The notes below the pieces were generated by a model that was given only the letters and a program-made list of their open reading frames with translations, was not told where the DNA came from and did not search any database. DNA of 64,000 bases from the IMG/VR virus record IMGVR_UViG_3300001533_002283, positions 96,001 through 160,000 of that record. One strand, given 5' to 3'. Positions 4,260 through 54,747 of this stretch are shown piece by piece (position 1 is the stretch's first letter; each line of letters begins with the position of its first letter). Source of the stretch: a virus. Made by a program: the position numbers and the translations under genes.

Positions 4260-5039
4260 TTAATCCGATAAAACTTCTGGGATAGGTTTTCCAACCATAT
4301 TATAATAATCAGGATTAAATTCCAATTTATTTTCCGCTTCGTTCCATCTAAACGAACAATATTGCTGTCCCCACCGTTGAGCCTGATATCTTTGCTTAAG
4401 TTTCCCCCTCTCATCGGAAGGCCAAGTGTGGTGCGCCACGAGGCTTATTGTGGGTGGAATATTTCTATTGGAAAACTCTTTAAAGTCTTTTTGTTCACCG
4501 GTAACTTTGTGTTCGTAATATGGCTCGTTATCATGATAGAAGAAACCCATTTTATATACACCAGAGCTAACCCGAAAGGCGCGCGGCGGAGTGAACGGGG
4601 TGGCCAAATATTTATGATTGTCGAAAATATAATTCTTATAAGAGAAGCTGAACCAAGCAGTTAGGGAATCTCTGGCGATAAATCTGGCGATGTTGGAGAT
4701 GTTATCCAAGGTATAAAACTCATCGCTGTCCGCTAGGAAAACCCAATCACACCCTTGTTCCAATAAATAAAACAATGCCTTATTCCGCGCTTCCGCTTCT
4801 GATACAAATTTTGGCTCAGTTACCAGATAATCCAACGGTAACGTCTTCAAATATTCCGTCGCACATTCGTCATTCGCGAACTCTGTATCCTTATATTCCT
4901 TAAAGGGAACTGAAACCGCCGAGATAATCCAAGTGTTACCACCAGTTTTCTGTTCACGGGCTTTTAGCCAAACGGGAATGCTTTCTTTAACATATTCAAT
5001 ATTGCCGAAACCACAGTAGATCAATCCAATTTTAGCCAT
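4260..5039 (-). CDS. Glycosyltransferase, GT-A fold (GT2-like)
   Basis: SEAEARNKAL...DWVFLADSDEFY (DxD motif). Confidence 0.8.
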   Translation of the reverse strand: MAKIGLIYCGFGNIEYVKESIPVWLKAREQKTGGNTWIISAVSVPFKEYKDTEFANDECATEYLKTLPLDYLVTEPKFVSEAEARNKALFYLLEQGCDWVFLADSDEFYTLDNISNIARFIARDSLTAWFSFSYKNYIFDNHKYLATPFTPPRAFRVSSGVYKMGFFYHDNEPYYEHKVTGEQKDFKEFSNRNIPPTISLVAHHTWPSDERGKLKQRYQAQRWGQQYCSFRWNEAENKLEFNPDYYNMVGKPIPEVLSD

Positions 5040-5065
5040 AATAATTTAGAGTAAAAGTTTTTACC

Positions 5066-5977
5066 TTACAATTTCTTCGCCCCACGTTCTTCCGCAAACC
5101 CCAACAACCAGAACATCTTATGTAATTCGCAAATCATGGAAATGAAGTTTGGCGCGGCGGCATAACCAGCAGAGTTCCAAAGCAGAAGATTCTTCACCGG
5201 ATTAAGCGTCACCAACTCTCGATTCAACTCTTTGGGATTAACCCCTTCAAAAATCTCCTTCTTCTCCGTCCCCCAATAAAATTCGTTTAACACACTCATC
5301 ATTTCAAACTTGCTTACACTTCCGCTCGGCACGAGATGGTGACACCCCGCAGAGAATAAATCGTTTTTAATAACGCCTTTGATAATTTGAGCAAGGTGAT
5401 AAGTTGTTACCCCGTTCCATTCGGTGTTGGTCCACCCAATATGCTTATCCGCTTCAATAAAACGCTCAAGAAATGAGTTTTTGGTGAATCGCTCTGGGCC
5501 GAGAATAGAACAGCGCAAATTCATCACGTTAGGAGAGATCACCTCCCCTAAGTGCTTACTCTTTGCGTAGTAATCACGAGAGCGATCAGCCGACATTTCA
5601 TCATTTTGGGGGAGTTTACTTTCGTCAAAAACGCAATCGGTTGTCAAGTGAATAATCTTAGACTCTTTGCAATTTTTGGCCAACTCAATAGGGAAAAGGG
5701 TGTTTAGTCTAACATATTCTTCGGGCGTGGGTTTTGCATTAGGAATCGCCCCGATGCAGTTAACGATGTAATCATAATTCTTGGCGAAAAACGGAGTGTC
5801 TTTAATCGCATCGAATTTATACACGTCGTAGCCTTTCCCTCGGAATAACTCTTCGCGGGAACGAGTGGTGACTCCAAGGTGGAGTGAATCATCCGCGCCT
5901 AACACCTTTTCTATCATACTCCCGGCCATGCCTGTTGCGCCGAGGATTAAAACTTTAGTTTTTTGATTGTTTGTCAT
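5066..5977 (-). CDS. rmlD: NDP-4-keto-6-deoxyhexose reductase (dTDP-4-dehydrorhamnose reductase-like SDR)
   Basis: VLILGATGMAG Rossmann motif, IVNCIG, IHLTTDCVF, YAKSKHLGE (YxxxK), WNGVTT, VSKFEM. Confidence 0.85.
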   Translation of the reverse strand: MTNNQKTKVLILGATGMAGSMIEKVLGADDSLHLGVTTRSREELFRGKGYDVYKFDAIKDTPFFAKNYDYIVNCIGAIPNAKPTPEEYVRLNTLFPIELAKNCKESKIIHLTTDCVFDESKLPQNDEMSADRSRDYYAKSKHLGEVISPNVMNLRCSILGPERFTKNSFLERFIEADKHIGWTNTEWNGVTTYHLAQIIKGVIKNDLFSAGCHHLVPSGSVSKFEMMSVLNEFYWGTEKKEIFEGVNPKELNRELVTLNPVKNLLLWNSAGYAAAPNFISMICELHKMFWLLGFAEERGAKKL

Positions 5978-5979
5978 TT

Positions 5980-6420
5980 TTAATTTAAAAGATTTTTATT
6001 TTCGAAATTATTTCCAACAACTTCATAGCTAAATACACTTCCGTTTTTGGGGCAGAACTCCCATTCTGAAACTGGGTAATAATTGTATTTAATAAAAGTC
6101 TCTTTATTTTCGTTAACACCGATTTCTGTTTTATATCTAGCGATAACTCCATTTCCTAGATGATAACATACTTCACAAAAGCAATTTCCCCTGCTTCCAG
6201 AAAAAACAAGAATATCTCCGATAAAAACTTTTTTGTTGTTTTTGTCAATACAATTCGTGGATGGTTGAACGACAAATCGACGATCTTTGTTTTTAATCGG
6301 TAAAAAATATCTACCATCAGACTCAAGAATGTTTCCCTCAACGTCCAACGCCAACTCATTATCATATCGTTTAGTCTGAGTATCCCATATTCTAAAAAAT
6401 TTTTGATATTGATTTGTCAT
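5980..6420 (-). CDS. YopX family protein
   Basis: FRIWD...QPSTNCIDKNNKKVFIGDIL...EVVGNNFENKNLL. Confidence 0.85.
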   Translation of the reverse strand: MTNQYQKFFRIWDTQTKRYDNELALDVEGNILESDGRYFLPIKNKDRRFVVQPSTNCIDKNNKKVFIGDILVFSGSRGNCFCEVCYHLGNGVIARYKTEIGVNENKETFIKYNYYPVSEWEFCPKNGSVFSYEVVGNNFENKNLLN

Positions 6421-7295
6421 AATTTATTGTTAGTTTTTTCTAAAATTTTGGCTAGAACTTGATCTTGAGGGATGTTGTCGGTGCCGTGAAAAGAATAAAA
6501 AGAAAAGTTATTTGGATTATCGACAGATAGCGCAGAGGGATTGTTTTCATTACCCCAATGAATAGGAATAAGAGAAATTTGTGGAATAGAATACGCGCCG
6601 AGAACCAAGGCCGAACCAGAATCCGTTCCAATAACTAAATCACATTCCAAAGCCTCTTTAATCTGGTCGAAAAACGGAAGAGAATTTAAACGTAATACAG
6701 ATTGGTTTTTACCCCCAAATAATTCCCAATCTTTTTCGCCGCCAAATTGATAAATAAAATAACCACGAGCAATTAATGGTTCTAATAAAGACTCCCAATA
6801 GTGTAAACTTGGGTTACGAACGTTTTGTGCAGAGTATCCCGCCTGAATAAATGCCCCTATAATCTTCTTGGAGAAGTCTTTACGAGTTGAGGGCCAATAT
6901 TTTTTAAGTTGCGGACGACGCTCTTCCTCTGTCAATTTTTCCCACATGTCCATACTTAAACTAGCCATCCGCCACGTCTCAGAATATATCGAAAAGTGTC
7001 GCGGATAAAGATCATCCGGATGTTGGGGATTTATTTCCATGATATAGCTTGCTGAACGCATTTTCTCATAATCGCGTTTAGACTCAATCCCTTCCTTCCC
7101 ATCCGTGATATAAATCTCGTCAATCCATTCGCAATTGTAATAGATTGGGGCGATTTGCCTAACCTTATTTGCTGTTGGCCAAATCAGGTGTGATGATGGG
7201 AATAATTTCTTGAAATGACGGGCAATCGGTAGGGCTGCTACCTGATCTCCAATCATTTGCGCTCGGCCAATCCACAGAACGGGGCTTTCTTTCAT
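6417..7295 (-). CDS. Glycosyltransferase family 9 (heptosyltransferase-like, GT-B)
   Basis: MIGDQVAALP...LKKLFP; CDLVIGTDSGSALVLGAYSIPQISL. Confidence 0.85.
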   Translation of the reverse strand: MKESPVLWIGRAQMIGDQVAALPIARHFKKLFPSSHLIWPTANKVRQIAPIYYNCEWIDEIYITDGKEGIESKRDYEKMRSASYIMEINPQHPDDLYPRHFSIYSETWRMASLSMDMWEKLTEEERRPQLKKYWPSTRKDFSKKIIGAFIQAGYSAQNVRNPSLHYWESLLEPLIARGYFIYQFGGEKDWELFGGKNQSVLRLNSLPFFDQIKEALECDLVIGTDSGSALVLGAYSIPQISLIPIHWGNENNPSALSVDNPNNFSFYSFHGTDNIPQDQVLAKILEKTNNKL

Positions 7296-7382
7296 AGGTT
7301 TTTGTTTTTATTGTAAGCTCTCTGTTGTCCTTATCAAATACTTGGAGTAAGAAAAATCCATTTGAGTGTCTTTCTCCGCGCG

Positions 7383-8279
7383 TTACGAGACGTGATATAT
7401 ATTGTTTCTTGAGCAGAAGAGCTTGACTTCTTCTAATCCTTTTATATCAAAAATTTTATTTTCTTTTTTAAAAATTATCCTAGAATAAACATAATTTTTA
7501 TTTTTGGGTTTTATTTTTCTAGGGTTTAAAACCGTGAAGCCTCGATGGGATACCATCTTTTCTTTGAATAAGCATCCTACCGCTCCAGTGCTCAAGTCGT
7601 GCTCTCTACAAAATGCGGCTATGTTATCTACTTCATAAACTACATCGTCTTTTTTTAGAAATCTTGTTTTTGTTTTTCTATTCCTAGCCTTCATGTTGGC
7701 ATCTTTCAAATGAAATCCTTTTATTGACTTCATCTTATCAGCCAAAACCATAGATACTGCACTCCTGTATCTTTGCGGCCAGCCCATCTCCTCCACGAAC
7801 CCAGCTATCGAATTAAACTTATACTCAATCCCATCCTTATACAAGGAATAATCACCCAAAAACCTAGCCCTTTGTGATTTTCGCGCCCTTTCTCTAGTCT
7901 GTTCAGATAAAATCCGATTAGTCTTCCCTCCTCCGTTTAAGTTATATCCATTTGGACTTATGGTTTTATATTTTTCTATATAAAATTCCTCTAAAACATC
8001 AAGATCCTCTTTATTTTTAGAGTGTTCTAAAAGATAAATATAAAAGCTAGATTTTCCGTATTTTTTAACGGCTCTATAAAGCCTTGGGGCATCATGTTTA
8101 TTTGGCTTGAATCCTTTGTATCTTTTAGAGAAAGTTTTTGCCGTTTGACCTATATACATCATTCCATTTAGGCGATTCAAAATCAAATAAATGATATTCA
8201 ATTTGGTTTTAATATCCTCTTCGGAAGCAGAAATTAAATCTTTAATGCTCTCTGGAATTATGTCTATCGCCCTCTCCAT
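7383..8279 (-). CDS. GIY-YIG homing endonuclease with C-terminal NUMOD1-like repeats
   Basis: IIYLILNRLNGMMYIGQT...LYRAVKKYG...E.FYIEKY...PNGYN; repeated F.SIAGF...KGF and NIAAFCREH...RGF units. Likely start at MERAID. Confidence 0.85.
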   Translation of the reverse strand: MERAIDIIPESIKDLISASEEDIKTKLNIIYLILNRLNGMMYIGQTAKTFSKRYKGFKPNKHDAPRLYRAVKKYGKSSFYIYLLEHSKNKEDLDVLEEFYIEKYKTISPNGYNLNGGGKTNRILSEQTRERARKSQRARFLGDYSLYKDGIEYKFNSIAGFVEEMGWPQRYRSAVSMVLADKMKSIKGFHLKDANMKARNRKTKTRFLKKDDVVYEVDNIAAFCREHDLSTGAVGCLFKEKMVSHRGFTVLNPRKIKPKNKNYVYSRIIFKKENKIFDIKGLEEVKLFCSRNNIYHVS

Positions 8280-8281
8280 AT

Positions 8282-8818
8282 TTATACCCGAATAAATTTC
8301 TCCCCTGCCTTTACACCCCAACCATATAAGGCCATCTTATGGCCATTAGAAAAACGAAACAACAATTTCTCTGGATACTTCTCATCAACTAAAACTCCCT
8401 TGGTGTGAAAATCATCCATGAGAACAATTTGAGTTTTTAAATCACACTTTTCAAATTGAAATAATGCCTCATGGGGGCAAACCCCACCATCCAGATAAAC
8501 AAAATCGTAGGAATTATTAACGTGATTCTCTCCTTTGTCGCAAATAAAAGCGGCATCAGCGGCAAAATTATTCACAAGTTCCCTGCACAAATCAAGAGAT
8601 TCCTGATTAATGTCTATAACGGTCAAGTGTCCACCGTTTTTCTCCACATAATTCGCCCAATGAAGAGTGCTCCAACCATCGCCCGCGCGCCCGTTCAAAT
8701 CGCGGAGACAGCCCACTTCGATAAAAGTTGCTGGTTCGCCCTTTAGGTAAGTCAGCGCGGTTTTAAATACTTCATCGCGGGCGGAAGTTTCTGTTTTTAG
8801 TTTAGTTTTAATATCCAT
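8282..8818 (-). CDS. Class I SAM-dependent methyltransferase (Methyltransf_24-like)
   Basis: FIEVGCLR...DGWST...TVIDIN...DFVYLDG...IVLMDD. The ATG at 8818 is preceded by TAACACTC. Confidence 0.75.
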   Translation of the reverse strand: MDIKTKLKTETSARDEVFKTALTYLKGEPATFIEVGCLRDLNGRAGDGWSTLHWANYVEKNGGHLTVIDINQESLDLCRELVNNFAADAAFICDKGENHVNNSYDFVYLDGGVCPHEALFQFEKCDLKTQIVLMDDFHTKGVLVDEKYPEKLLFRFSNGHKMALYGWGVKAGEKFIRV

Positions 8819-8823
8819 GAGTG

Positions 8824-8976
8824 TTACCAAAATTTAGAGATAAAATGAAAAGCTACATAGCCGATTGCACCAATAAGTCCTAGTCCACCGATAAAGGTGA
8901 CTGACCATGTGACGATTAAAAACTTCTCAAAAGAAGTATGTTTGCGAAGAGAGGGCGGGTTTGAGATAGAATCCAT
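8824..8976 (-). CDS. Small (50 aa) single-pass membrane protein
   Basis: Not in the ORF track. Manual translation MDSISNPPSLRKHTSFEKFLIVTWSVTFIGGLGLIGAIGYVAFHFISKFW; it fills the gap between neighbouring genes. Confidence 0.6.
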   Translation of the reverse strand: MDSISNPPSLRKHTSFEKFLIVTWSVTFIGGLGLIGAIGYVAFHFISKFW

Positions 8977-8988
8977 AGGTTTTATTTG

Positions 8989-9576
8989 TTAAAGTTTAAT
9001 GTCACCGCGAAGATACCAAGAGTCGGTAACATCCATGTTAATTAACCTATAGTTATTTTCCTTAAACCAGTCAACCAATTTCTCATAATCCGGCGTGCGA
9101 TATTCCTCATTGTGCGTTTCCACACTTACGAACATCGGGCGGCTCACCATACGGGAAATGATCTTATACTCACATCCTTCCGTATCAATCAGCGCCACGT
9201 CAATATCACCCGTATCAATCTCGGCCATATCCCTCACATTCATTCTCACCCGTGGTTTTGCCGCAACCCACCCCTTCCCCATCTTCTGAGTCCCCAAAAC
9301 GAATGTCGGGGCAGCAACCTCGGCGGAACAGGTGGAGTCACCATCTTCTAAGAACTCGATAGTGTCGTTCTTATCGTATAGTCCAAAATTGTTAATTTCA
9401 ACATTGGGGATACTACCATAATGGGCGACCAAATCAGAATAAGTTTTGGGGTTCACTTCAAATAGTTTTAGCCGAATAGGGGTGTTGAAATAAGGTTGAG
9501 AGCGGGAGATATAGGGGTTGCCCACTCCGATTTCCCAAATATTTTTGGGGTTAAGTTGTTGGATGATTTCTTGCAT
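8989..9576 (-). CDS. FkbM family methyltransferase
   Basis: WEIGVG, LFEVNP, INNFGL, IDVALIDTEGCEYKII, VSVETH. Confidence 0.85.
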   Translation of the reverse strand: MQEIIQQLNPKNIWEIGVGNPYISRSQPYFNTPIRLKLFEVNPKTYSDLVAHYGSIPNVEINNFGLYDKNDTIEFLEDGDSTCSAEVAAPTFVLGTQKMGKGWVAAKPRVRMNVRDMAEIDTGDIDVALIDTEGCEYKIISRMVSRPMFVSVETHNEEYRTPDYEKLVDWFKENNYRLINMDVTDSWYLRGDIKL

Positions 9577-9585
9577 AGTATTATA

Positions 9586-10848
9586 TTAGAGTTTGTTAAG
9601 TTCGCGCGCCAAGTCAACCGCCATTTTAGGTGTGACCCCAGCATGTAAGCCAATGTAGATTGAGTTTTTGTGTAGATAATCCGCATTAGGATAATCCCTT
9701 GGGTTCCCAAGTCCCTTAAACGCCGTATGATAAAGCAAATTTGAACCAACTAATCCGCGATATCCAACGCCGACTGCTCCTAAATAGCCCTTTACCCGCT
9801 CGATTAAACCCTCATCAGGATAATCTGGGTTTTTCACAATGGGCAGGGCAAGTGGAACAAATTTATGAGATAAAAACCAATAAGAAGATAAATTTAAGAA
9901 TTTTTCCTTTGTCTCATTCAGGTCATAAATGCCACAGCCTTGAGAATCAAGCTCTGAATAAAAAAGATAGCTAATTTTTTGACGATATTTCTCCGACCAC
10001 TCTAAAGAACGATCAAAATCCAGAGAGTGCATATAAGCAATCAAGTTGGTCGTTCTGTAATTAGAGCCCATCACACAAAAATCAAAAGAGGGGTCAACGG
10101 AAAAATTCTTATACTTCTCTGGCATCCCCCGTGTCATCCCATGATTTCTCGCCATTTTTAACCAGTTGTAGGTTTCCTCGTCTTGGACAAAGCATAAGCC
10201 TGATTCCTGCATGCCGCTCGTAAAATGAGATGCATAAACTGATGTAGAAGAAAGAGTTATATTACAAAAATGTTTTTTGTAAAACTTGGTTGATAACCCA
10301 TCTCCATACGACGCCCAAGAAAAGGATGATTCACAATTGTCCAAATAAAGTGTTACACCTCTTTCTTTACAAATTTTTTCAATCTCCTCTAAATTACCAG
10401 ATTGACCAAGTAGAGTTGTGTAAAAAACGGTTTTGATTTCAGGGTCTTTATCTAACGTTTTTTGTATTTGTTCAGCAGAGGGGTTTAAATTACTTAACTC
10501 AACATCAACAAATACAGGTTTGAAAGAAAAATTAACAAAAACTGAGACTGAACTAATCCAATTCACCACATTAAAAAGAACTTTGTTTTCTCCGCATTTC
10601 CATAAACCTTGTTTTTTAAGTTCCTCTTTCCGATATAATGCAATCAATTCGTTCGCCGCGCTACCAGAGCCAACCATTACCACATAGGGACACCCCGTAT
10701 AATCACTCCATTTTTTTTCATACTTTTCGATTTCTGGTCCGACTGTCCACTTATCATTCGTCAGGAGAAATTTACTAATTTTTAGTTTGTCTAGTAGCGT
10801 CATGCTAGAATGACCTAATGGCCAATTAAACTTTTTCTTTTTGCTCAT
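9586..10848 (-). CDS. DegT/DnrJ/EryC1/StrS PLP enzyme, ColD-type 4-keto-6-deoxyhexose 3-dehydratase
   Basis: VMVGSGSAANEL, PVFVD, LDNCES, SVYASHF (His at the usual Schiff-base Lys), RNHGMTR, GSNYR, YIGLH. Confidence 0.8.
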   Translation of the reverse strand: MSKKKKFNWPLGHSSMTLLDKLKISKFLLTNDKWTVGPEIEKYEKKWSDYTGCPYVVMVGSGSAANELIALYRKEELKKQGLWKCGENKVLFNVVNWISSVSVFVNFSFKPVFVDVELSNLNPSAEQIQKTLDKDPEIKTVFYTTLLGQSGNLEEIEKICKERGVTLYLDNCESSFSWASYGDGLSTKFYKKHFCNITLSSTSVYASHFTSGMQESGLCFVQDEETYNWLKMARNHGMTRGMPEKYKNFSVDPSFDFCVMGSNYRTTNLIAYMHSLDFDRSLEWSEKYRQKISYLFYSELDSQGCGIYDLNETKEKFLNLSSYWFLSHKFVPLALPIVKNPDYPDEGLIERVKGYLGAVGVGYRGLVGSNLLYHTAFKGLGNPRDYPNADYLHKNSIYIGLHAGVTPKMAVDLARELNKL

Positions 10849-10853
10849 AAAAA

Positions 10854-11213
10854 TTATTCTTTGTTGTATCCTACCTTAATCTCTGCCGAGCCCCCACCGA
10901 AAAACTCGTCTTGAATTTTCTGTTTTGCTAAAAAGCGATTCCAGTTTAGGCCGTCAACCACAAGGGCGTCAACCCCACCTTTTTTAATCTCATCAACCAT
11001 CCTAAACACATCTAAATTAGCTTGAAGCAATTCTAAATACAAATCAGAACGATATGCGGCTAAAAACTTTTCCCCACCCTGCTCTTTTAAGTGTAAATAG
11101 CACTCGTCAAAAAGCCGTTGAGATTCCTCTGTTTTTGTTTGTAGACTTTTGATGCGCAAGATCGAAAGAAAGTCCAAAGCATAAGACTCTGATACTTTTA
11201 AATTATAGGGCAT
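10854..11213 (-). CDS. Small helical protein often found beside glycosyltransferases (DUF6165/DUF4254-like)
   Basis: VS...LDFLSILRIK...L..ANL.VF...DE...N..RF..KQ.I pattern. Confidence 0.5.
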   Translation of the reverse strand: MPYNLKVSESYALDFLSILRIKSLQTKTEESQRLFDECYLHLKEQGGEKFLAAYRSDLYLELLQANLDVFRMVDEIKKGGVDALVVDGLNWNRFLAKQKIQDEFFGGGSAEIKVGYNKE

Positions 11214-12087
11214 TGACCACCTCCAAGATTTTACCCGCAACGCCAACTGGTGATGTTTTTTCTTTTAGGTTTTTCACGTAATGGTTATAAAGCCGATCTT
11301 TTAAATCTTGATTTTTTGCATTTTTCATCATAAAAGAAATAATCGTTTCCGGCTTATCAACATCATAATCATATTCAGGGAATAGCTCGCTTGGGATTAA
11401 CTCTTCCCTTGTCGTGAGTCGCGGATGAATTAGGGGGATACACCCACAGGCCATTGCTTCTATAGGTATCAACGAAAGTCCCTCCCATTCCCCGAAAGAG
11501 AAAGAAAAAGAAGCGGAGGAATAAAGATAAGAAAGTGTTTCGCTGTCAACTATTCCCAAGCTAATACCAACACCTCCGTATTCCGGACCCACATCAACAA
11601 CAACCTCTGAGTTTAAACCTATAGAAATCAAATCTTGAACGATTCTCGCGTTTTTATTCGGATCGTGCTTCCTCCCCACATTAATACAGAGGAATTTAAA
11701 GCTGCATTTTTCCATTAGCTGGATATTTGAAATTGGCTGATAGATGACGGCAGAATTAATATTGAAAAACTTAACTAATTGTCTTTGAACATGTAGCGAA
11801 ATTGAAGTAACCGCATCCGCATGGGACAATAATTTTTTACAATTATCTAACGAATACCCATTGGGTAGTAAAAACTCTGGTATGTCTAAAATATTCAGAA
11901 TCAACTTTGCATTTGGGCTCCGCGCCTTACATTCAATCGCCGCAGGGTGACTCCCCTCATCATTTGAATAAATAAAATCAGGGTTATTATCCGACTCGGT
12001 TAAGCCTAGCGCAAGAAACCCCGCCTTGATACGCTGAATCTGCCCCGTTTCTCCACCCCAGCCGAAACATTTAAAGGTTTTGATCAT
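11203..12087 (-). CDS. Glycosyltransferase family 4 (GT-B)
   Basis: EGLSLIPIEAMACGC (Ex7E motif), VGR...KN, ADAVTSIS. Confidence 0.85.
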   Translation of the reverse strand: MIKTFKCFGWGGETGQIQRIKAGFLALGLTESDNNPDFIYSNDEGSHPAAIECKARSPNAKLILNILDIPEFLLPNGYSLDNCKKLLSHADAVTSISLHVQRQLVKFFNINSAVIYQPISNIQLMEKCSFKFLCINVGRKHDPNKNARIVQDLISIGLNSEVVVDVGPEYGGVGISLGIVDSETLSYLYSSASFSFSFGEWEGLSLIPIEAMACGCIPLIHPRLTTREELIPSELFPEYDYDVDKPETIISFMMKNAKNQDLKDRLYNHYVKNLKEKTSPVGVAGKILEVVNAL

Positions 12088-12604
12088 CTTGATTTCTAAT
12101 TGGACTGAACTTGTTAAACTGATCATCCATCATAGAGAAGATAAACTGATCATCCGTCATAGAGAAAACGTCCTTTAGTTTTATGGGTGTAGGTAAATCA
12201 CCCGTAATTCTATCTGGCCCTTTGATTGTAATTTTCTTTTTAACTTGAAATGGGACACGAAAAAAGAAAAAGTTTAGATATTTGGTTTTGTAAATAACTT
12301 CTTCCCGCTCAAAAATAAAAGAAGCCGATATTTTTTCATCCCACGAAAAAACTCCATTAGAGTAAGAAATTCCGTAATTAGCTATAGTGACTTTAATATC
12401 ATCGGGAATCTGTGCCCATATTAAACGCGGCATTGACACGCTGTATTTACCCTTGATATAAGCCCCTTTAATTGCCTCAAATATAAATCCAAAATCTTTC
12501 ATTTCAGTCCGACCGACCCTAGTAACATACCATCCGTGCGGCCACTCGTTGGTAATTATCTTTTGTTTTTTACCTTTAAAAAGATTTTTTATTAGTTTTT
12601 TCAT
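12071..12604 (-). CDS. Hypothetical protein
   Basis: 177-aa ORF packed within the operon. Confidence 0.6.
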   Translation of the reverse strand: MKKLIKNLFKGKKQKIITNEWPHGWYVTRVGRTEMKDFGFIFEAIKGAYIKGKYSVSMPRLIWAQIPDDIKVTIANYGISYSNGVFSWDEKISASFIFEREEVIYKTKYLNFFFFRVPFQVKKKITIKGPDRITGDLPTPIKLKDVFSMTDDQFIFSMMDDQFNKFSPIRNQDDQNL

Positions 12605-12605
12605 A

Positions 12606-13418
12606 TTATTTTATAATTAAATTATGCTTAAACATTTCCCGTTTTTCTAACTTACTTAACTCTGTCGCCACCTCAACCTCACGCCCCGCCTCCGCGCCCC
12701 ATTGTTTCCGCCAAAAATTCCGATTGATTTCGACTCTCCGCTCAAGATCAATCCATCCGTAGTGAACTACATAGGGTAAGTTTTGTTCGCGGAGAAAATT
12801 CGCAGCGGTTTCCTTAGTGGAAAAACTTGGTTCGTCAAAGTAGAGAAACGCGGGGACTAAATCCCCATAGGTGTTAAGAAGTTCGCAAGAGTCTGATTTG
12901 TTGGTGTCATGCGTCCCGTCCGCGTTCTTGGAGAAGTTAACCACTCCCCGCTTTAGCCCGCGCTTGTGCAAATACCACTTGGAGGTAAACGATGAAAAAT
13001 GTTCTTTGTCACTGTATAGATTTACCGAAGGGATAAACGCAGCTTGAAAAATATCACTCTCTAAAACAATCTCAGAAAGTTTATCCCAATATTCCAAATT
13101 ATGCAACGACATCTTTTCATCAAAGTCCAGTTGCAACAAAATGTCACCCCCGCACGCCTGTAATGCGGCGTTTTTCAAATCACCGTCAAAGGTGGGAGTA
13201 AATTGTTTTAACTCTGTCTTAATTACCCGCAATTTTGGATAATCCTTGGCTTTACCCAATAAATACTCGTAAGTCCTATCTGCATCCTCAATCGTCGCCA
13301 CTACCACCTCATCCGCCCAGACGGAAAAATTATCTAGGTGTTCATCAATATTGAACTTATTAGTTTTATAATTAAAAAGTGTGGTATAAATAGACTTCTT
13401 AAAAGTGGGAATTGACAT
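12606..13418 (-). CDS. Glycosyltransferase, GT-A fold (GT2-like)
   Basis: ADEVVVA...DRTYE...KNAALQACGGDILLQLDFDE...VVHYGW. Confidence 0.85.
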   Translation of the reverse strand: MSIPTFKKSIYTTLFNYKTNKFNIDEHLDNFSVWADEVVVATIEDADRTYEYLLGKAKDYPKLRVIKTELKQFTPTFDGDLKNAALQACGGDILLQLDFDEKMSLHNLEYWDKLSEIVLESDIFQAAFIPSVNLYSDKEHFSSFTSKWYLHKRGLKRGVVNFSKNADGTHDTNKSDSCELLNTYGDLVPAFLYFDEPSFSTKETAANFLREQNLPYVVHYGWIDLERRVEINRNFWRKQWGAEAGREVEVATELSKLEKREMFKHNLIIK

Positions 13419-13974: not shown

Positions 13975-13978
13975 AATG

Positions 13979-14206
13979 TTATTTTAGGCCGCGTAGTTTT
14001 TTGAAGTCAGATATTCCTTCTAGTAGGGTTTCGTCCTCAACATGATACTTATCTTTCTTCGCGTAATCCCGTTCAAAAAGAGAGATAACTTGATAAAACC
14101 TCATATCAGGATATTTCTGCCAGACCGATTCAATCTGACCTAAAACCTCCTTGATTCGGGCCGGGTCGCGGGGCGGGGCGTTGAATAGTTTTCCGGTAAA
14201 GGGCAT
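13979..14206 (-). CDS. DUF1040/YihD-like small protein
   Basis: RDPARI..VL..I..VW.KYPDMRF.Q...EDE.L. Confidence 0.65.
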   Translation of the reverse strand: MPFTGKLFNAPPRDPARIKEVLGQIESVWQKYPDMRFYQVISLFERDYAKKDKYHVEDETLLEGISDFKKLRGLK

Positions 14207-14211
14207 GAGTG

Positions 14212-14397: not shown

Positions 14398-14427
14398 TGC
14401 GGAAGATAGTCACTATTTTAACTCGCC

Positions 14428-42900: not shown

Positions 42901-45900
42901 GCTCTAAACTCTTTTTCTGATTTTTTTGCAGCGGCACCGAGAGTTCCAACGGCAAGACCCAAAGTTCCCATCACGGCGATACCCATTGGACCGGCGAGAG
43001 AGCCTAGCGCGGCACCACTTGCGGCACCTTGAACACCACCGGCAACAACTCCGCTACCCAACACACCGGAACCGGCCAAGGCAGATGCACCAAAACTTGC
43101 GGCAATCGCGCCGCCAGTTAATCTACCCGAACGTAATTGACGAGTTTGCTGTTGACGAGTTTCTAGCGCAATTTGCTGTTGCGGGGTGAGTTTTTGTCCA
43201 GCGGGAACACCCAAGGTATTTCTTAATGCTTTTTCGTCGCCCTTGGCAGAACCAAAAAATCCAGCTATCCCACGCTCACGAGTGGCAAAAGTTCCAGAAA
43301 GTGCTTGGTCAAAATTAACAGCGGAACTAGCCTGAATAAACTGACTTCTGAACTCCCCGATTCTTTTACGCAAAAGTTCCCTCGCAACCGGATCGGCTTT
43401 TATTTGATTAGAAGTGAACCCCCTAAATTCATCACTCTGAATAGCCGAACGAAAAGCGGCGGCGTCAATAGCTCCTCTCTGACGCTTGTCAAGTTGAGAA
43501 AATCTAGTTCCAGAAGAAATTGATTCCTGAGCGCCAGATAATAATTCTGATATATTTCTTCCTTGGGAAGCGCGAGCAATTTGACCTCTTAAAGAATTCA
43601 TCTCAATAGAACCGCCACCCCTTAATCCAACTGGAATAGAAGGTGAATAAGGAATGCCTGTGGCATATCTAGCTTGCTCCCTATTTCTTATAGCAGTCAT
43701 CCTTGCTTCCGCCTCTTCCGTGGAAAGTTTATTACCGCCGCTTCTAAAAATAGAAGCCAATCTCTTTTCCTCTTCGGCCCTTTCTGCCATGACTTTACCT
43801 AGCTTCGCGCCCGCGTTTTGAATTACTGTATTAACCTTGGCCAATCCAGAATTTGTTAAATTAAGGGTTTTAGTATATTCGTTAAGTTCCCTTACAGCGT
43901 TACTAAAATCTTGCGGCGAAACCGCCATTCTAACTTTAGAAGAAAGAGAGCGTAGTTTTTTAGCCTCATCCGCAAATAAAGTCTGTTCTCCACTTAAAAT
44001 AGAAACGTTACCCAAAATATCTTTAACCTTGCCCGTAGGAGTTCTTCTTGAGACATTATCAAATTCGGCAAAATTCGGAACAAACCCATTCCCTGTCCCT
44101 TTCTTCGGGTCCATACCAAGCGCGATTGCGCGATTTACCCCTTGAAAGCCACCAAGAGGTTCGTCACGACGATTCGCAACGAGTAGTCCCATTGGATTCC
44201 GAGGGGATTTTACACGGGGATCTCTATCAACGTAAATAGACGACGCAGGAACTCCGGCCATTTTTTCTCTATTAACGGCCTGAGCAATAGGGTCGGCAAA
44301 ACGCGGAGCCTCCCCCTTAATGTTGAATTTTCCCCCACTAAAACTCATTCCCGCCTCACCAATCTTACTTTGCCCAATACCAACTCGGCTTAAACCACCA
44401 CCAGAAGCAAAACCGGGGGAAAGATTAGAGGTAAGAGCCCCAGCCGATGCGCGTAATGCAACTTGTTCTCTTACAATAGCTAAAATTCTTCTTTCAACCT
44501 GCTCTAGACTAGTTGCTCCCTTAATAATATCAGCATAAGATTTACCAGAAAGTTCGAGTAATTTTTGCACTTCCGCCTGAACTTGTCTTTGGCGTTCGAC
44601 CCCCCGAACGTTATCCAGAATTGACTTACCCGCTTGAACGGCGAAAGAGCCAAGGCGAAGGAAAAGAGCTATTAAACCAGCGGAGGCAAGGGCCAATCCG
44701 GGGCCGCTTAGTGCGCCGCCAATGCCCTTGAGTAATCCTTCTCCAATGCTAGTTCCTGCCTTTTCTCCCTCTTGCGATGAAAAAATCTTTAGGAAAAAAT
44801 TAGCCCAAGTCTCCAACTCTTTGATAACGGGTCCAAATATATTAGAGCCAAGTTCCGCACTTAACTGAGTAATACCAACTTTAATAGCATTGAGAGAAGC
44901 TGCCGTGGTTTTATTTAATTCTTCGTTACGGCGAATAGCTTCGTCAGTAGCGTCGTTAGCAACCACAAGAGCGCGAGCATAAAACCCATATTCTTTGCTC
45001 AAATCATTTAATTGCGCTTTTAACTGATTGATTTGGAAAACACCACCGACCAACTCGGAAACGAAAGCCTTTTGTTCTTGACCTAATCCGTCATAGACTA
45101 GTGAAAGATTTTTAAGAATTTGAGGAGCACCAAGTAACTCTCCATTAACTTGACGAACCGCCACGCCAATCTTTTCCAACTGTTCCAAAGTAGAACTACG
45201 TTGAAGGCGGGTGAAAATAGTTTTAAGAGAATTACCAATAACCGCGCCGCCACGAGCCGTAGTCTGTTGAGCGGCAGTTACTAACGCAACCAGTTCATCA
45301 AAACTCACACCCGCGTCACTCGCCGCACTAGCAGAACGCTTAATAGCTTCGGTAAGGTCTCGTTCTGAAACCGCGAACTTGGCGGCAACATTCGCGAGTT
45401 TATTAACCACCACTACGTCATCGAGAGCTTCTTTGCTAAATGAGTTGATTGCTGCGGTAAGACCCTCAACCGCATCCTTGGCCTCCAACCCGCCTAAACG
45501 AGCAAGAATCAGCGCGGCATTTAATCTTTTTGTGGTAGCTTCGGCACTAAGACCTTGGCGGGATAACTCTAGTGCGGCCTCGGCGGCAACTTGAAACCCC
45601 GTTCCGGCATTCTTCGCGGCTTGAAAAATTTCATCGGTGAACTTAGCGAGATTCTTATTGGTCTGATTGAGAACACTGTTAATATCCGCGATAACTTTCT
45701 CCACCTCAATAGCATCGGTGATTACAGCGCGTAAACCTCTCTGAACGGCGAAAATAGCCCCGGCAGAAGCACCGAATGCCAAAACACGGGCGTTGGATGC
45801 CTCCATTGATTTGTTAAACTCATTGGCCTGCCCCGTGATTCTACCAAGGGGACCACTCAGGCGATTCAACCCACTGGCATCAATTTTGGGCCTAAGGTTC

Positions 45901-45983
45901 AGCGCACGTTCAGCCGAGCGAGCACCACGAATGATACTTTGCTCAATTCCTGTAACTTTGCCTGTTAAAATAATTGATTCCAT
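39903..45983 (-). CDS. Tail tape measure protein (TP901-family core)
   Basis: 2026 aa, helical; ELSRQG...VNKLANV...L.EAI.R..S.A...GV.FDEL..L...G..IGNSLKTIF.R. Confidence 0.92.
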   Translation of the reverse strand: MESIILTGKVTGIEQSIIRGARSAERALNLRPKIDASGLNRLSGPLGRITGQANEFNKSMEASNARVLAFGASAGAIFAVQRGLRAVITDAIEVEKVIADINSVLNQTNKNLAKFTDEIFQAAKNAGTGFQVAAEAALELSRQGLSAEATTKRLNAALILARLGGLEAKDAVEGLTAAINSFSKEALDDVVVVNKLANVAAKFAVSERDLTEAIKRSASAASDAGVSFDELVALVTAAQQTTARGGAVIGNSLKTIFTRLQRSSTLEQLEKIGVAVRQVNGELLGAPQILKNLSLVYDGLGQEQKAFVSELVGGVFQINQLKAQLNDLSKEYGFYARALVVANDATDEAIRRNEELNKTTAASLNAIKVGITQLSAELGSNIFGPVIKELETWANFFLKIFSSQEGEKAGTSIGEGLLKGIGGALSGPGLALASAGLIALFLRLGSFAVQAGKSILDNVRGVERQRQVQAEVQKLLELSGKSYADIIKGATSLEQVERRILAIVREQVALRASAGALTSNLSPGFASGGGLSRVGIGQSKIGEAGMSFSGGKFNIKGEAPRFADPIAQAVNREKMAGVPASSIYVDRDPRVKSPRNPMGLLVANRRDEPLGGFQGVNRAIALGMDPKKGTGNGFVPNFAEFDNVSRRTPTGKVKDILGNVSILSGEQTLFADEAKKLRSLSSKVRMAVSPQDFSNAVRELNEYTKTLNLTNSGLAKVNTVIQNAGAKLGKVMAERAEEEKRLASIFRSGGNKLSTEEAEARMTAIRNREQARYATGIPYSPSIPVGLRGGGSIEMNSLRGQIARASQGRNISELLSGAQESISSGTRFSQLDKRQRGAIDAAAFRSAIQSDEFRGFTSNQIKADPVARELLRKRIGEFRSQFIQASSAVNFDQALSGTFATRERGIAGFFGSAKGDEKALRNTLGVPAGQKLTPQQQIALETRQQQTRQLRSGRLTGGAIAASFGASALAGSGVLGSGVVAGGVQGAASGAALGSLAGPMGIAVMGTLGLAVGTLGAAAKKSEKEFRAAADAYQQLSASLESNVTNAQQYATVQAQLSDLIASGNAKTSDITNLNTQLTTLFNNIGDNETRRKFLDAAGNVDALNKAVSELANKNALKLAEESVGVAITAANAGRVNKTLGFGGTARTEDLAKIGDSLAISSKIKPEVFEEVRKNFENLRTGGDIKAVSEALSKFGLDASKVGKDVNELLVVLDSAIQGRGITKEMEERSKIDQKYVLQLQKYNEDFKKLVIDIDNTRQILELQSSSTGRIGLAGQAEQLKLLSAGGATESSVFLRQANMARRELEFSKSEEDRALRSSARSGLVSFGSDNLKEGPLKTAFLDALKDPRASIDVVDELRKLEALGDDSFKNIAESRKAIQDLLGSFLKNAQEMAIRQNEQTEIQELQLKTQEKLLRRRDLGRIFGGGLGQELDPTAIFEGARAGAGVNAANKTLRSRAFMFPEERMAAGIGSTQGRITEAQGLIQLGQILPEMVDSFRTPENLERVADANQFDILQKNRQVLAASLKGFFEGEFQAGGAFGPGGDVGGRDLQRRLFEALTLDRTKGGTDYSEAQRVLETSNLGIRNPDAARRLRGIVGSAGQVAGLSREAAMVRANDQFVTPLALQKEELTTAKNIAENTKNTIAAIEDLILVFAERQKVIDAGVAKTAAETKLKEEQQALIGKQTSANELRDRMAFVTPSDSARGLLRGTSSEAFNQAAQAVSGRNLQDFIKKDPTLRLQDSTSLLTREISRGGSVSEIAERFKGNEASQNFLQFLSPNKEGQDEKLKQLIFSFAPERSQALFEKLNTEVFEFGERVKSAAEAFNQAEERLNEETRNLNLFMGVKDVIKEVYGSAPKPGAPTMESTFTGRTTLSNQSLFNVQNSLADVPARAAIDAQFNNDTSGRFTTGQKNRQNQEKDLAEKTAAINFKAAAEEGGLAFGASINKGLTEALEGASDKTKIAVENKINAALEVIVKDGRVTPEEIAQIKETVEKTVKMVLELKNQNNKDNGLNTMPTAAPSGARR

Positions 45984-49467: not shown

Positions 49468-50730
49468 TTAATTTACCTCATAGTTAAATCCACTGCCCGC
49501 GATAAGATTAACCGAAGCAAAATTACCCGAGATGGTGTAAGTGGGTTGATAGTCAAAGGTGACGCCATTGCCACTAAATGTTATCGGAGTTGTTTCGCTC
49601 GCTCCCACGTAATCCTTGATCATATAACCCCAACCTTGGCGGAAATTATCTTGATCGAATATCAACACTTTTCCATTGCCGCTACCAAGAGTCGCATAAT
49701 AAGCTATTTCATCCGGCGTATATAAACCACCTTGATTTGACTCAAATAATTGCTCTCCCAAAGAATTAACATTAACCGCCAAATAATAATCGTCGGCTTG
49801 AACAGTGTAAACGTCCGCGTTGATATACTTGATGTAATAATTGGGAGCGGGGGGAACAGGAGCCGGAATTGTCGTCGGTTTAATTCTAGGGAACCTTACC
49901 GTATTAACATCAAATTCTAAATAAGACACGTAATAATTATCGTTTTTATTCGCATCCTCCGAGGTTTTCGCTGTATAAACCCTGTCAATCCAAGGCATAG
50001 TCCCCGGAAAACCATAGCGGGAGATGATTCCATTGTAGTTATAATAACCGCTTTTTAAATCATTAAAGAAGTCCAAGGGAACTTCGGTAGAAGGCGCGAT
50101 TGGGAAAGGTAAGTGATTGGTATCGCGAAAAATAGACTGGAGACCATCTTGTTGCCATAAATCCTTAGAAATTGTAATCGCGCGAATTGTCGTCTCCGTC
50201 ATATCTTCCCCGCCGAACGCGAAACCTTTATTTTGGCTATTGGGTAGGTCCAGAATAACACACGGGGCTTTATAAAGTCTCGGGGCGATTCCCGTTGCGG
50301 GGTAACTCACGTTAGGATTACTACCTTTTGCGCTCTCAAATATAAATTGAGAAGAGTCACGGTTAGTAATATAAGTGTTAAACTCTTTTGTGGCGAAACT
50401 TCCGCTAAAACCCGCTGGATGATTTACGCCAGAGTCAAAAAAGATTCGGCCATTTTGATAATCAATTTTTAATCCGCTAGTTCCGCGAGGTATGAAAGTG
50501 TTGCTACCCACGGGATAAACCCCGCTGATGATATTGGCGTTTGGAATCGCGCTATCGTAAACAAATTGTTTGTAGGGACTTGTATAAACCGAGTAACCCG
50601 GCAAAGATTCGTCGTTTTGCGGGTAGAATACGCCGGTTTGATTTTCAAACGCCTCCCCATTAGCCAAAAGCTGATTCTCAAACCAGAGAGTGAATGACGT
50701 GAAGAGTTTATGATTAAATGTTTCTTTCAT
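49468..50730 (-). CDS. Putative tail terminator/neck protein with appended C-terminal domain
   Basis: Located just before the tail tube gene; P....P.VI......GFAFGG; Pro-rich linker before the extra domain. Confidence 0.6.
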   Translation of the reverse strand: MKETFNHKLFTSFTLWFENQLLANGEAFENQTGVFYPQNDESLPGYSVYTSPYKQFVYDSAIPNANIISGVYPVGSNTFIPRGTSGLKIDYQNGRIFFDSGVNHPAGFSGSFATKEFNTYITNRDSSQFIFESAKGSNPNVSYPATGIAPRLYKAPCVILDLPNSQNKGFAFGGEDMTETTIRAITISKDLWQQDGLQSIFRDTNHLPFPIAPSTEVPLDFFNDLKSGYYNYNGIISRYGFPGTMPWIDRVYTAKTSEDANKNDNYYVSYLEFDVNTVRFPRIKPTTIPAPVPPAPNYYIKYINADVYTVQADDYYLAVNVNSLGEQLFESNQGGLYTPDEIAYYATLGSGNGKVLIFDQDNFRQGWGYMIKDYVGASETTPITFSGNGVTFDYQPTYTISGNFASVNLIAGSGFNYEVN

Positions 50731-52925: not shown

Positions 52926-52960
52926 AAAAAAACCGCCCGAATGAACGAGCGGCTTTTTAA
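52926..52960 (-). terminator. Intrinsic terminator after the major capsid gene
   Basis: aaaaaaccgc...gcggcttttt hairpin with a tract on both sides. Confidence 0.7.
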
Positions 52961-53003
52961 GAACGAATTAGGGTTAGCTAACTCGTTGGGTTTCAAGGGT
53001 TTA

Positions 53004-54122
53004 TCAAAGAATAAGGCCGCTAATGCTGCGTGAGTCAACCACTGCGTAGCCTTCTTCAAGACCACCAGAGAAACCAATCTTGCCCTGACGACGAACATAC
53101 TGGTCATCGGGGACAACAACAACCTGACTGGATTTGTCGCCATTGGTAGCGACAGGACGCCAGAGGCCGTCAGTATTGGCGTTAACACCAATAAGGATTT
53201 CCTCGTTGGCGGCGTTGAACACGGAGGTGCCGGAACCAGAGTGGTCAGGATACTGGATGGTACCAGCAGCCGCGCCGAACAGAGTGTTATAAGCATAACC
53301 AACACCAAGTTCATTCATCTGATGGATTGACACGTCATAGAAGCTGAGAGCACCAGCGGACTTGTAAATCTCTTCGCGGAGTTTTTCGTGAGCGGGAATG
53401 TTGGTGACGGTGCCAACGGTGTTGACGGGGTTGAAACTGAGACCGCGCAGCTTGCGAAGAACCTCCGGGGAAACCATGAGGTCAGTGAGGGACTGAGCAC
53501 CAAAGACGGGGGTGCCACCGTTCCACGCGGCAAGAATACGGGCATTAAGTTCGAACATACCGAGGAAGTCATCAAGAACGATAGTGTTCGCGGTAGCGGT
53601 GCGCTTAACGTGTTTCTTGGCAACTCCACCGTTAGTGGTTTCGGCCTGAGCAAGGGCAGAGAGAAGAACGAACGCGGCGTTAGTATCACGCTTGATAAGG
53701 AACTCTTGAGCCATGCGGTTCAGGGTCTTGGCAACAATGTCCACGTTACCCTGAGCGGCGAATTTCTTAAGGAAAGAAACGGCAGACTCAAGTTCATAAG
53801 TGGAGAATTTTAGTTCATTGATACCGTGAACTTCGCTGGAGGGAAGACCACCGGCCATTGACTGTTGCCAGACGCGAACATACTCGGTTTCCTTCACATC
53901 ATAGAACAAGTCTAGGGGGAGGGAAGGATTAGAATATTTATCGAAAGCATAATCTTTGAAAAGATTGCTGATAGTAGGAGCCTTGTTGATAACAGTCTGG
54001 ATGGTAGGACCGGCAACGGCGGCAAGAGCCTCTTGGGCCTGCATCGCCTTTACAGAATCGGTAGAAGCCATTGCTTTGACAAGTTCAACCTGCTCGGGGG
54101 TTTTTTCTAGGAAAATAGACAT
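53004..54122 (-). CDS. Major capsid protein
   Basis: 372 aa following the scaffold and cement genes; HK97-like layout; strongest codon bias in the window; followed by a terminator. Confidence 0.8.
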   Translation of the reverse strand: MSIFLEKTPEQVELVKAMASTDSVKAMQAQEALAAVAGPTIQTVINKAPTISNLFKDYAFDKYSNPSLPLDLFYDVKETEYVRVWQQSMAGGLPSSEVHGINELKFSTYELESAVSFLKKFAAQGNVDIVAKTLNRMAQEFLIKRDTNAAFVLLSALAQAETTNGGVAKKHVKRTATANTIVLDDFLGMFELNARILAAWNGGTPVFGAQSLTDLMVSPEVLRKLRGLSFNPVNTVGTVTNIPAHEKLREEIYKSAGALSFYDVSIHQMNELGVGYAYNTLFGAAAGTIQYPDHSGSGTSVFNAANEEILIGVNANTDGLWRPVATNGDKSSQVVVVPDDQYVRRQGKIGFSGGLEEGYAVVDSRSISGLIL

Positions 54123-54162
54123 TTTATTTTATAATTTAATTGTTAAAAAGTTAAACTTGGTA

Positions 54163-54747
54163 TTAGAGGTCGAGGAGGAACAGGGCGTTGCCACCAAACT
54201 TGGCGGAATTGGCGCTAATGAACTTACCGACAATCTGATCAGAGGTGTAGCCAGCACCGGTAACGGCGGAAGGGGCGAGGGCTTGAATGCGGCCACTACC
54301 AGAGTGAGAAATCACGCCAACGGAACCAATCGCGGGGGTGCCGAGGTAAGCGCCAGACTTGAGGAGGAGCATACCGCGTTTAGCAACGGGAACATTTTGA
54401 CCAGAGATAACGCAGTTAAGTTTGGTCGCAAGTTCAGGATGGAACAGGAGAGATTCGCCGTTCTCGTCAACTTCGCGAGTGTCTTTGAGCATAACGCCGA
54501 GGACGCTATACTTAGTATCACCAGAAGCGGAGAGGGCGATCTTGGCCTTGCTCTCGTAACGATTAGAGAAAGTGTTGCCATATGTAGCCCCAACGCCGAT
54601 AGACGAATAACCGTCAGCATTGTCGAGGTCGAAAGCGGTGGGTTTTACGAACAGACCGGCTTCACCGGTAGTATTGAGCGCGAAAAGGTTGATTTCCTCG
54701 TGGGGACCAACGTCGCGGAAAGGGAGTAACTTGTTTTGGATTGTCAT
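54163..54747 (-). CDS. Capsid cement/decoration protein
   Basis: Directly upstream of the capsid gene; LGV.L...SGQ.VPV..RG...VGKF beta-tulip-like pattern; same codon bias. Confidence 0.7.
   Translation of the reverse strand: MTIQNKLLPFRDVGPHEEINLFALNTTGEAGLFVKPTAFDLDNADGYSSIGVGATYGNTFSNRYESKAKIALSASGDTKYSVLGVMLKDTREVDENGESLLFHPELATKLNCVISGQNVPVAKRGMLLLKSGAYLGTPAIGSVGVISHSGSGRIQALAPSAVTGAGYTSDQIVGKFISANSAKFGGNALFLLDL

Follow-up and report, generated by a model that had tools for sequence, protein, structure and literature searches.

Glycosyltransferase genes and a Ser/Thr-Gly excess in tail proteins of a freshwater phage: two neighbouring features with a putative link

Introduction

The DNA analyzed here (the window) is a stretch of 64,000 nucleotides, bases 96001-160000 of the virus record IMGVR_UViG_3300001533_002283, a single-contig freshwater phage genome of 172,181 bp that CheckV rates as 100% complete. 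The window carries a set of glycosyltransferase (GT) genes next to a tail gene cluster, several products of which are rich in Ser-Gly and Thr-Gly dipeptides ([ST]G). A preliminary description had joined both features into a virion-wide O-glycosylation system with [ST]G as its sequon. To our knowledge, virion glycosylation has been proven in only a few mycobacteriophages, and we know of no rule for its sites. Our analysis indicates that the GTs and the [ST]G excess are two real features lying side by side, with a putative link between them; we regard this combined account as the best reading, albeit with slightly less than even confidence. Genes are named by their lower coordinate in the window.

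Results and discussion

Glycosyltransferase genes and their relatives

All eight GTs proposed in the preliminary description found support, though of unequal strength, from Pfam matches above cut-off down to leads from language models. They are listed with the conserved gene that accompanies the tail-side GTs.

4260-5039, minus strand: GT2-like (GT-A) with a DSD motif; nearest ESM Atlas viral clusters carry PF00535 (template modelling score, TM, 0.89)
6417-7295, minus strand: GT9-like (heptosyltransferase-like), accessory, assigned by homologue annotation only
11203-12126, minus strand: GT1/GT4-like, weakly supported, accessory; PF00534 at 1.7e-4 (below cut-off), phrog_4356 (GT) at 4.6e-6
12606-13418, minus strand: GT2-like (GT-A) with a DFD motif; ESM Atlas match (TM 0.85) to a viral cluster with 89% PF00535
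18328-19410, plus strand: glycosyltransferase of the tail-side block; phrog_2170 (GT) at 2.7e-15
21593-23545, plus strand: GT1 (GT-B) with DUF4214; PF00534 and PF13946 above cut-off
23552-24739, plus strand: GT9-like; PF01075 at 1.6e-7, above cut-off, over the sugar-nucleotide lobe only (aa 80-175)
24760-25593, plus strand: conserved protein without family match, always beside the GT9-like gene; homologues in 5/5 lineage members
25590-26612, minus strand: GT-A fold glycosyltransferase, last gene of a cassette; AlphaFold2 model with a predicted local distance difference test score (pLDDT) of 87.8

A ninth GT, of the GT2 type, is located outside the window. PDB sequence searches with 4260, 6417, 12606 and 25590 gave no match. 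The GT2-like assignment of 4260 was accompanied by a weak PF00535 match in the search of its own genome. For 6417, neither a direct Pfam nor a PDB match was obtained; many of its 37 homologues bear the JGI name ADP-heptose:LPS (lipopolysaccharide) heptosyltransferase, and one carries PF01075. The match of 23552 to that profile covers positions 175-244 of 247, at aa 95-173, and a match to WaaF (1psw) spans aa 80-143; a domain of 220 aa without assignment follows the lobe. No pairwise similarity was seen between 6417 and 23552.

Among GenBank phages we found no DNA-level relative of this genome and no protein relative of 29119, and terminase (TerL) matches reached only 20-26%. Scanning IMG/VR with 34534 or with alignment A1 returned nothing, and with alignment A5 only the 144-kb relative G001; metagenome scans gave nothing with alignment A4 and only a 2.6-kb contig and G001 with A5, and no further lineage member emerged from the genome-contig scan. 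None of these scans revealed a member of the lineage that lacks GTs. Five of the GTs (4260, 12606, 18328, 21593 and 23552) were found in every relative checked, 18328 where the contig reaches that far; the G001 homologues of 4260 and 12606 are 49% and 44% identical, respectively. A syntenic tail-side block consisting of 24760-like, GT9-like, GT1-DUF4214, 20871-like and 20323-like genes is present in 5/5 lineage members, and the GT 18328 (homologues in L006, G001 and L028) forms part of it wherever the contig extends to this gene. The block is thus interleaved with a virion-like, [ST]G-rich protein of the 20323 type, which lies 2.8 kb from 23552. Its most conserved gene is 21593, with 52-81% identity in L006, G001, L027 and L028; the GT1 domain contains a CxxC...CxxC insert at residues 286-307, in which Cys 286/289/304/307 are invariant. 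In the 191-kb relative L027, an IS605 OrfB-type transposase gene (19323-20573 of that contig) directly adjoins the conserved block.

The [ST]G excess in tail proteins

The structural genes form a long minus-strand run. Because PHROGs and Pfam gave nearly none of their products a family, the names tube, terminator, adaptor and cement that had been given to some of them are positional guesses and found no family support. For each protein, the number of [ST]G dipeptides observed was divided by the expectation from its own composition (O/E), with Poisson p values.

20323-20769, plus strand: [ST]G-rich protein of 148 aa within the GT block; 9 [ST]G, O/E 3.13
29119-30207, minus strand: [ST]G-rich tail protein; 21/34 Gly follow Ser or Thr, O/E 2.73, p 5.6e-5
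34534-36327, minus strand: [ST]G-rich distal tail protein of 597 aa; 26 [ST]G, O/E 2.42, p 5.7e-5
36372-38270 and 38287-39891, minus strand: two proteins just downstream of the tape measure; moderate O/E of 1.77 and 1.83
39903-45983, minus strand: tape measure protein of 2026 aa (phrog_4211 and others, 2.9e-48)
49468-50730, minus strand: structural-module protein of 420 aa, O/E 2.06
53004-54122, minus strand: capsid candidate (by position only, no family match); O/E 0.99, and 0.84 in G001
62031-63914: terminase

The earlier hand counts for 29119, 34534 and 20323 proved to be exact. Pooled over the six families 20323, 29119, 34534, 36372, 38287 and 49468, 100 [ST]G were observed against 45 expected, which rules out composition alone as the explanation. 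When all 247 open reading frames (ORFs) of the genome were compared, p<0.02 was confined to these tail proteins and a single ORF of 61 aa; the 158-aa product of 28622 was also raised (O/E 2.18). No other of the 400 dipeptides was as enriched in the tail set as SG and TG, which stood at 1.06 and 1.04 in non-structural proteins, and the enzymes of the genome, described earlier as free of such density, indeed gave about 1.05. Pooled over the enriched families, pairs of the usual turn formers fell below expectation (DG 0.79, NG 0.87, [DN]G 0.84, GG 0.47). For comparison, the virion protein sets of lambda, T4 and T5 yielded O/E values of 1.09-1.26, the top single values being those of T5 pb4 (1.87) and of a few proteins with small counts.

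The enriched proteins are rich in Ser, Thr and Gly, so that an artefact of composition, of repeats or of a DNA motif had to be weighed. We consider it hardly credible. The O/E values are corrected for composition, the sites are dispersed rather than confined to repeats, and the enrichment is kept in relatives of different GC content. Nine of the ten Ser/Thr codons are in use before Gly, and therefore the signal lies at the protein level; a DNA motif was rejected on the same grounds, only AGY being doubled. Avoidance of deamidation, by replacement of NG and DG, was likewise discarded, since NG is near expectation and the [ST]G excess exceeds the deficit of Asp and Asn. Common descent of the enriched families was also rejected: among the three most enriched, hhalign detected no homology (probability <1%). 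The products of 20323 and 49468 do share a C-terminal domain, their last 110-137 residues being 43% identical (residues 284-420 of 49468), and by this domain both may be attached at a common position in the virion. In the flanks of the [ST]G sites, a weak preference for hydrophobic or aromatic residues at -1 and +2 was the only signature.

The trait is conserved well beyond this genome. Across the families, relatives with as little as about 20-30% identity had O/E values of 2.0-3.6. When 1.84 billion representatives were searched with a profile, 21 members of the 29119 family emerged, and 18/19 aligned members had an O/E of 2.0-3.6, down to about 20% identity. The families of 34534, 20323, 36372, 38287 and 49468 keep their enrichment in L006, L012, G001, L027 and L028: orthologues of 34534 reached 2.45-3.34 (L006, L012, L015, L027, L028), those of 20323 reached 2.87 (L006) and 3.11 (L028), the counterparts of 36372/38287 gave 2.46 and 2.07 in G001 and 2.10 in L027, and the counterpart of 49468 in G001 gave 2.42. 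The G001 counterpart of 20323 is a protein of 535 aa with 40 [ST]G. In the 29119 family, Ser or Thr is retained at 0.66 of the [ST]G sites versus 0.44 of other Ser/Thr positions, and swaps between Ser and Thr are common at [ST]G sites, with few replacements by Asp or Asn. The individual sites turn over nonetheless: in the alignment of 19 sequences [ST]G occurs in 79 columns, 45 of these in three sequences or fewer, and labile Gly residues are preceded by Ser or Thr in 32-59% of cases versus 21% by composition.

The excess does not extend over the whole virion surface. The distal tail and tail-accessory families bore out the claim that outer structural proteins are rich in [ST]G; the capsid candidate, the 30212 family (O/E 0.56-1.04 here and in relatives), 32386 (weakly Big_2-like, that is, immunoglobulin (Ig)-like; 0.92-1.30 here and in relatives) and the Ser/Thr-rich fibre family of 26653 (0.25-1.12) did not. 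The protein 33571 was not enriched either (0.94). Since the capsid candidate, 32386 and 30212 are without enrichment, an [ST]G coat is not a general shield, and the virion-wide glycan coat proposed earlier was abandoned. Nor is the tape measure devoid of the dipeptide, as had been stated; it holds 33 [ST]G at an O/E of 1.35, close to the 1.46 of the presumed tube protein 48257.

A possible structural role of the dipeptide

The AlphaFold2 model of 29119 (pLDDT 91.5) is all-beta, with three beta-sandwich domains, and its Foldseek matches are MSCRAMM, AgI/II, pilin and PKD-type proteins; it resembles the chained Ig-like sandwiches of adhesins and phage tail proteins. Mapped onto this one model, 15/21 [ST]G sites occupy loops or the boundaries between strand and loop, versus 45% of all positions. 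At a typical site Ser closes a strand and Gly opens a turn, a placement that, as modelled, fits a strand-cap and turn role. Modification stays compatible with the model, because positions of this kind would be exposed as well. As the modelled 29119 has Ser or Thr ending or preceding the strand and Gly starting the turn, we read [ST]G mainly as strand-cap/tight-turn grammar of exposed beta-sandwich tail proteins, which would be under lineage-specific selection. T5 has no GTs, yet its Ig/FN3-rich protein pb4 has an O/E of 1.87, and part of the effect is therefore structural.

Several observations weigh against this structural account, the argument for which comes from a single modelled family, 29119. 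Two beta-rich neighbours in the same operon, 32386 and 30212, show no enrichment, which structure alone does not explain; virion proteins of lambda, T4 and T5 as sets stay at the low values given above; and the usual turn formers (DG, NG and GG) yield to Ser and Thr. Moreover, non-homologous families appear to have converged on [ST]G, and, judging from the 79 columns and the labile Gly residues of the 29119 alignment, new sites seem to keep arising. A pressure acting in trans, for instance from a modifying enzyme, would be consistent with all these points.

In the corresponding alternative, [ST]G would serve as a minimal sequon for O-glycosylation, and one conserved GT would recognise it on selected distal tail proteins in the cytoplasm. 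Its enzyme would be 21593, 23552, 18328, 4260 or 12606, most plausibly 21593 or 23552, with the accessory enzymes extending or capping the glycan. Convergence of non-homologous families, the hydroxyl-specific character of the sites with frequent Ser/Thr swaps and few Asp or Asn, their turnover at constant density and their location mainly in loops and strand ends all speak for it, as does the fact that, in 5/5 lineage members, the GT block keeps its synteny with the tail genes and has a member of the 20323 family among its genes. Likewise, L014 and L016, which have the GT-A cassette alone, show little enrichment. A precedent exists in TibC, which heptosylates Ser313 within an N-S-G-G stretch of TibA (PMC4358343). 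On the other hand, the modification is putative and its basis is sequence patterns; the five members come from the same lineage, so that their co-occurrence counts as one evolutionary event; enrichment is missing from the capsid candidate, Ig-like 32386 and 30212; the internal tape measure about equals the tube candidate; and the flanking signature is confined to the weak preference at -1 and +2. Taken together, we judge a sequon to be rather unlikely.

The bacterial autotransporter heptosyltransferase (BAHT) family, with TibC and AAH (PMC4358343), is the closest parallel for such an enzyme: a GT-B heptosyltransferase-like protein O-modifies many Ser residues of a beta-rich surface protein whose gene is close by, and two GT9-like genes are present here. 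TibC modifies Ser, not Thr, on a beta-helix (PMC4358343), whereas both residues are enriched in our proteins. TibC also has an N-terminal barrel, a hairpin thumb and a Cys4 iron finger (PMC4358343), and the alignment of the five-member 23552 family revealed no conserved Cys4. With its iron finger lacking, 23552 was rejected as a BAHT member, which counts against the sequon as well. A Cys4 insert is instead found in the GT1 protein 21593; this CxxC...CxxC knuckle recalls the TibC finger, the likeness being one of motif only.

Accessory sugar enzymes and missing pathways

The minus-strand GTs of the region 4260-13418 are mixed with sugar enzymes and methyltransferases, the assignments of which were upheld by Pfam and NCBIfam.

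5066-5977, minus strand: RmlD-like NAD-dependent sugar reductase/epimerase; Pfam Epimerase 1e-11, RmlD_sub_bind 4.5e-11
8282-8830, minus strand: methyltransferase, weak class I (weak Methyltransf_24/25), accessory
8989-9576, minus strand: methyltransferase, FkbM type (Methyltransf_21 FkbM, 2.4e-7), accessory
9586-10848, minus strand: pyridoxal phosphate-dependent DegT/DnrJ/EryC1 sugar aminotransferase or 3-dehydrase (RfbH/ColD-like), Pfam 2e-30, accessory

The match of 5066 to TIGR01214 (rmlD, 2.3e-13) was below cut-off, and the top NCBIfam match of 9586 was RfbH (8e-21). A gmd gene (Gmd) lies outside the window, at genome positions 91135-92193. By tblastn, G001 has no counterpart of Gmd, 9586, both methyltransferases, 6417 or 11203, and yet its [ST]G O/E is 2.55. 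Because G001 keeps an enrichment as strong without it, the extend-and-cap branch is accessory, and the scheme in which the whole enzyme set primes, extends and caps one chain did not hold. A YopX-family gene (5980-6420) and a GIY-YIG endonuclease gene (7383-8321) lie within the cluster. The absence of the endonuclease and its neighbours from G001 suggests that the sugar-enzyme cluster is a flexible island shaped by mobile genes.

Alternatively, the [ST]G excess might have nothing to do with the GTs and sugar enzymes, and these might act on non-virion targets of the host, such as precursors of lipid-linked O-antigen, LPS or capsule, so as to mask receptors or exclude superinfecting phages. GT9-like enzymes mostly act on LPS cores, the 4260-13418 cluster with its endonuclease and YopX genes is variable like a flexible island, and clusters of GT and nucleotide-sugar genes, of unknown role, are common in large aquatic phages (PMC12619734). 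In a hydropathy scan of the 247 ORFs, no protein had more than four transmembrane-like segments, and none of the GT regions contained one. No multipass membrane protein that could act as flippase, polymerase, oligosaccharyltransferase or initiating transferase was present. In addition, the GT block and the GT-A cassette are located inside the tail gene cluster or at its end, and the GT-A gene co-varies with a protein partner. A host-surface target is thus unlikely in our estimation.

Phage GTs often glycosylate DNA, according to Pyle et al. 2024 as cited in PMC12619734, and hypermodification of the phage genome (glucosyl-hydroxymethylcytosine or glycosylated hydroxymethyluracil) would be another possible function. 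PF00303, the family of thymidylate synthases and deoxynucleoside monophosphate hydroxymethylases, had no match in the CheckV-complete genome, and the GTs are linked to tail genes rather than to replication genes, which makes a DNA target very improbable. Given that neither a multipass membrane protein nor a ThyA-family hydroxymethylase was found, lipid-carrier export and classical DNA glycosylation are unlikely to be phage-encoded. What the phage is predicted to encode is a set of soluble, cytoplasmic glycosylation enzymes.

A mobile GT-A cassette at the end of the tail cluster

Three genes at the end of the tail cluster constitute a unit of their own, ending with the GT-A gene 25590.

28622-29098, minus strand: 158-aa protein, first cassette gene; homologues precede the Ser/Thr-rich gene in L004, L006, L014, L015, L016 and L027
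26653-28617, minus strand: 654-aa Ser/Thr-rich protein (Ser+Thr fraction 0.355); [ST]G O/E 0.94

All 50 PDB matches listed by Foldseek for the 25590 model are of the GT-A type (E down to 9e-9, TM 0.46). The top matches are COLGALT1, LH3, chondroitin polymerase and Mnn9, the nearest being the protein-glycosylating GT25/LH3 enzymes, and in the ESM Atlas the model fell to GT2/GT25 clusters at TM 0.6-0.7. A D113-S114-D115 motif is invariant in 42 sequences. The family counts 471 homologues at E<=0.001; among the 120 matches listed, identities are 50-74%, and none carries a Pfam domain or an informative name. It spans phages, prophages and a lone gene in a 1.19-Mb Planctomycetaceae contig.

The order of a 28622-like gene, a Ser/Thr-rich gene (650-810 aa, 27-36% Ser+Thr) and the GT-A gene is shared by the window, L006, G001 and L027, the GT-A gene of L027 being on the opposite strand. 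Counterparts of 26653 (Ser+Thr fraction 0.27-0.36) precede the GT-A gene in L006, L014, L015, L016 and L027, and the same cassette occurs in two otherwise unrelated elements, the 269-kb phage contig L014 and a Rariglobus prophage. In L028, the Ser/Thr-rich protein and the GT-A are both absent, while the [ST]G enrichment is kept; 25590 was accordingly rejected as the [ST]G enzyme. The [ST]G enrichment is hence independent of 25590, as it is of the accessory branch, since L028 and G001 retain it. Co-present in six contexts and co-absent in one, 25590 and 26653 are the best candidate enzyme-substrate pair. Beside the portal gene of L014, at 13500-21038, a protein of 5594 aa is encoded, with matches including ddrB-ParB, helicase and Sigma70_r2.

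From these patterns we infer glycosylation and its targets as follows. That some virion protein is glycosylated is a prediction we favour slightly. The phage GTs would glycosylate tail appendage proteins, as the most likely targets, stepwise in the cytoplasm before assembly, and the GT-A 25590 would modify the Ser/Thr-rich 26653, the best-supported pair of enzyme and substrate. The accessory branch, with the Gmd, RmlD-like and RfbH/ColD-like enzymes, the two methyltransferases and the GTs 6417 and 11203, varies between relatives.

Comparison with known systems

Mycobacteriophage glycans have been located on the C-termini of capsid and tail-tube subunits (Freeman et al. 2023, as reported in PMC12619734 and PMC12363180). 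According to the same reports, soluble GTs of the actinobacteriophages Che8, Corndog and Myrna are proposed to decorate the phages' own virion proteins in the cytoplasm, a situation similar to the one we envisage. Here, in contrast, the last 40 residues of the capsid and tube candidates, both identified by position, have Ser+Thr fractions of 0.10 and 0.23 and no tail-like extension. The candidates for modification are instead distal tail proteins and a Ser/Thr-rich fibre, the host phylum is probably Verrucomicrobiota, and the system is a prediction from sequence.

Serine-rich-repeat adhesins have dedicated GTs of the GtfA/GtfB type. As with 26653 and 25590, a Ser/Thr-rich surface protein adjoins its own GT and is co-inherited with it; the phage enzyme, however, is GT-A and not GT-B, its partner has no simple repeats, and the pair belongs to a mobile tail cassette with a third, small gene. 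Eukaryotic proteoglycan xylosylation takes place at Ser-Gly, with acidic flanks expected. The flanks here are not acidic (acidic fraction within +/-4 residues of [ST]G 0.059 versus 0.091 background), Thr occurs at the sites alongside Ser and no enzyme of the GT14 type was seen, so the likeness to a proteoglycan site, which had been suggested, is reduced to the Ser-Gly dipeptide itself.

Flagellin O-glycosylation of the Maf type is stepwise, cytoplasmic and lipid-independent and precedes assembly of the structural protein that it modifies, with genes linked to the substrate gene (PMC12645811). If real, the phage system would be of the same stepwise cytoplasmic kind (PMC12645811). No Maf homology was seen, and in the phage the dipeptide bias is the whole argument. 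For Maf itself we know of no sequon.

Host and neighbouring genes

A prophage in a metagenome-assembled genome (MAG) of Rariglobus (Verrucomicrobiota) has the GT-A cassette and two fibre genes in common with this phage. The host is probably a member of the Verrucomicrobiota, Opitutaceae such as Rariglobus being candidates. The two tail-fibre-like genes at 57440-59919 encode proteins of 167 aa (phrog_10508, tail fiber) and 656 aa (tail-fibre PHROGs); they are 36-40% identical to neighbouring genes of the Rariglobus MAG prophage, and no homologue was found in G001. Around both, at about 57500-59500, the GC content rises to 59-69% compared with 40% for the genome. The two genes appear to be a receptor-binding cassette gained by horizontal transfer, and they hint at the host. 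At the other end of the window (232-2805), the large subunit of ribonucleotide reductase is encoded (phrog_84, 1.8e-120), for which G001 gave no tblastn match.

Conclusions

Whether it reflects structure or modification, the [ST]G bias, which unrelated tail proteins have convergently maintained across deep divergence, needs an explanation. If [ST]G did mark attachment sites, glycosylated phage proteins would become predictable from sequence, and a true [ST]G sequon would be the first sequon-defined virion glycosylation outside the actinobacteriophages. Under either reading, an unnamed GT-A family that moves with a Ser/Thr-rich tail protein between unrelated phages offers a clean, testable pair. 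Should [ST]G be the attachment site, tail glycans would be open to study as shields, adhesins or host mimics in environmental phages.

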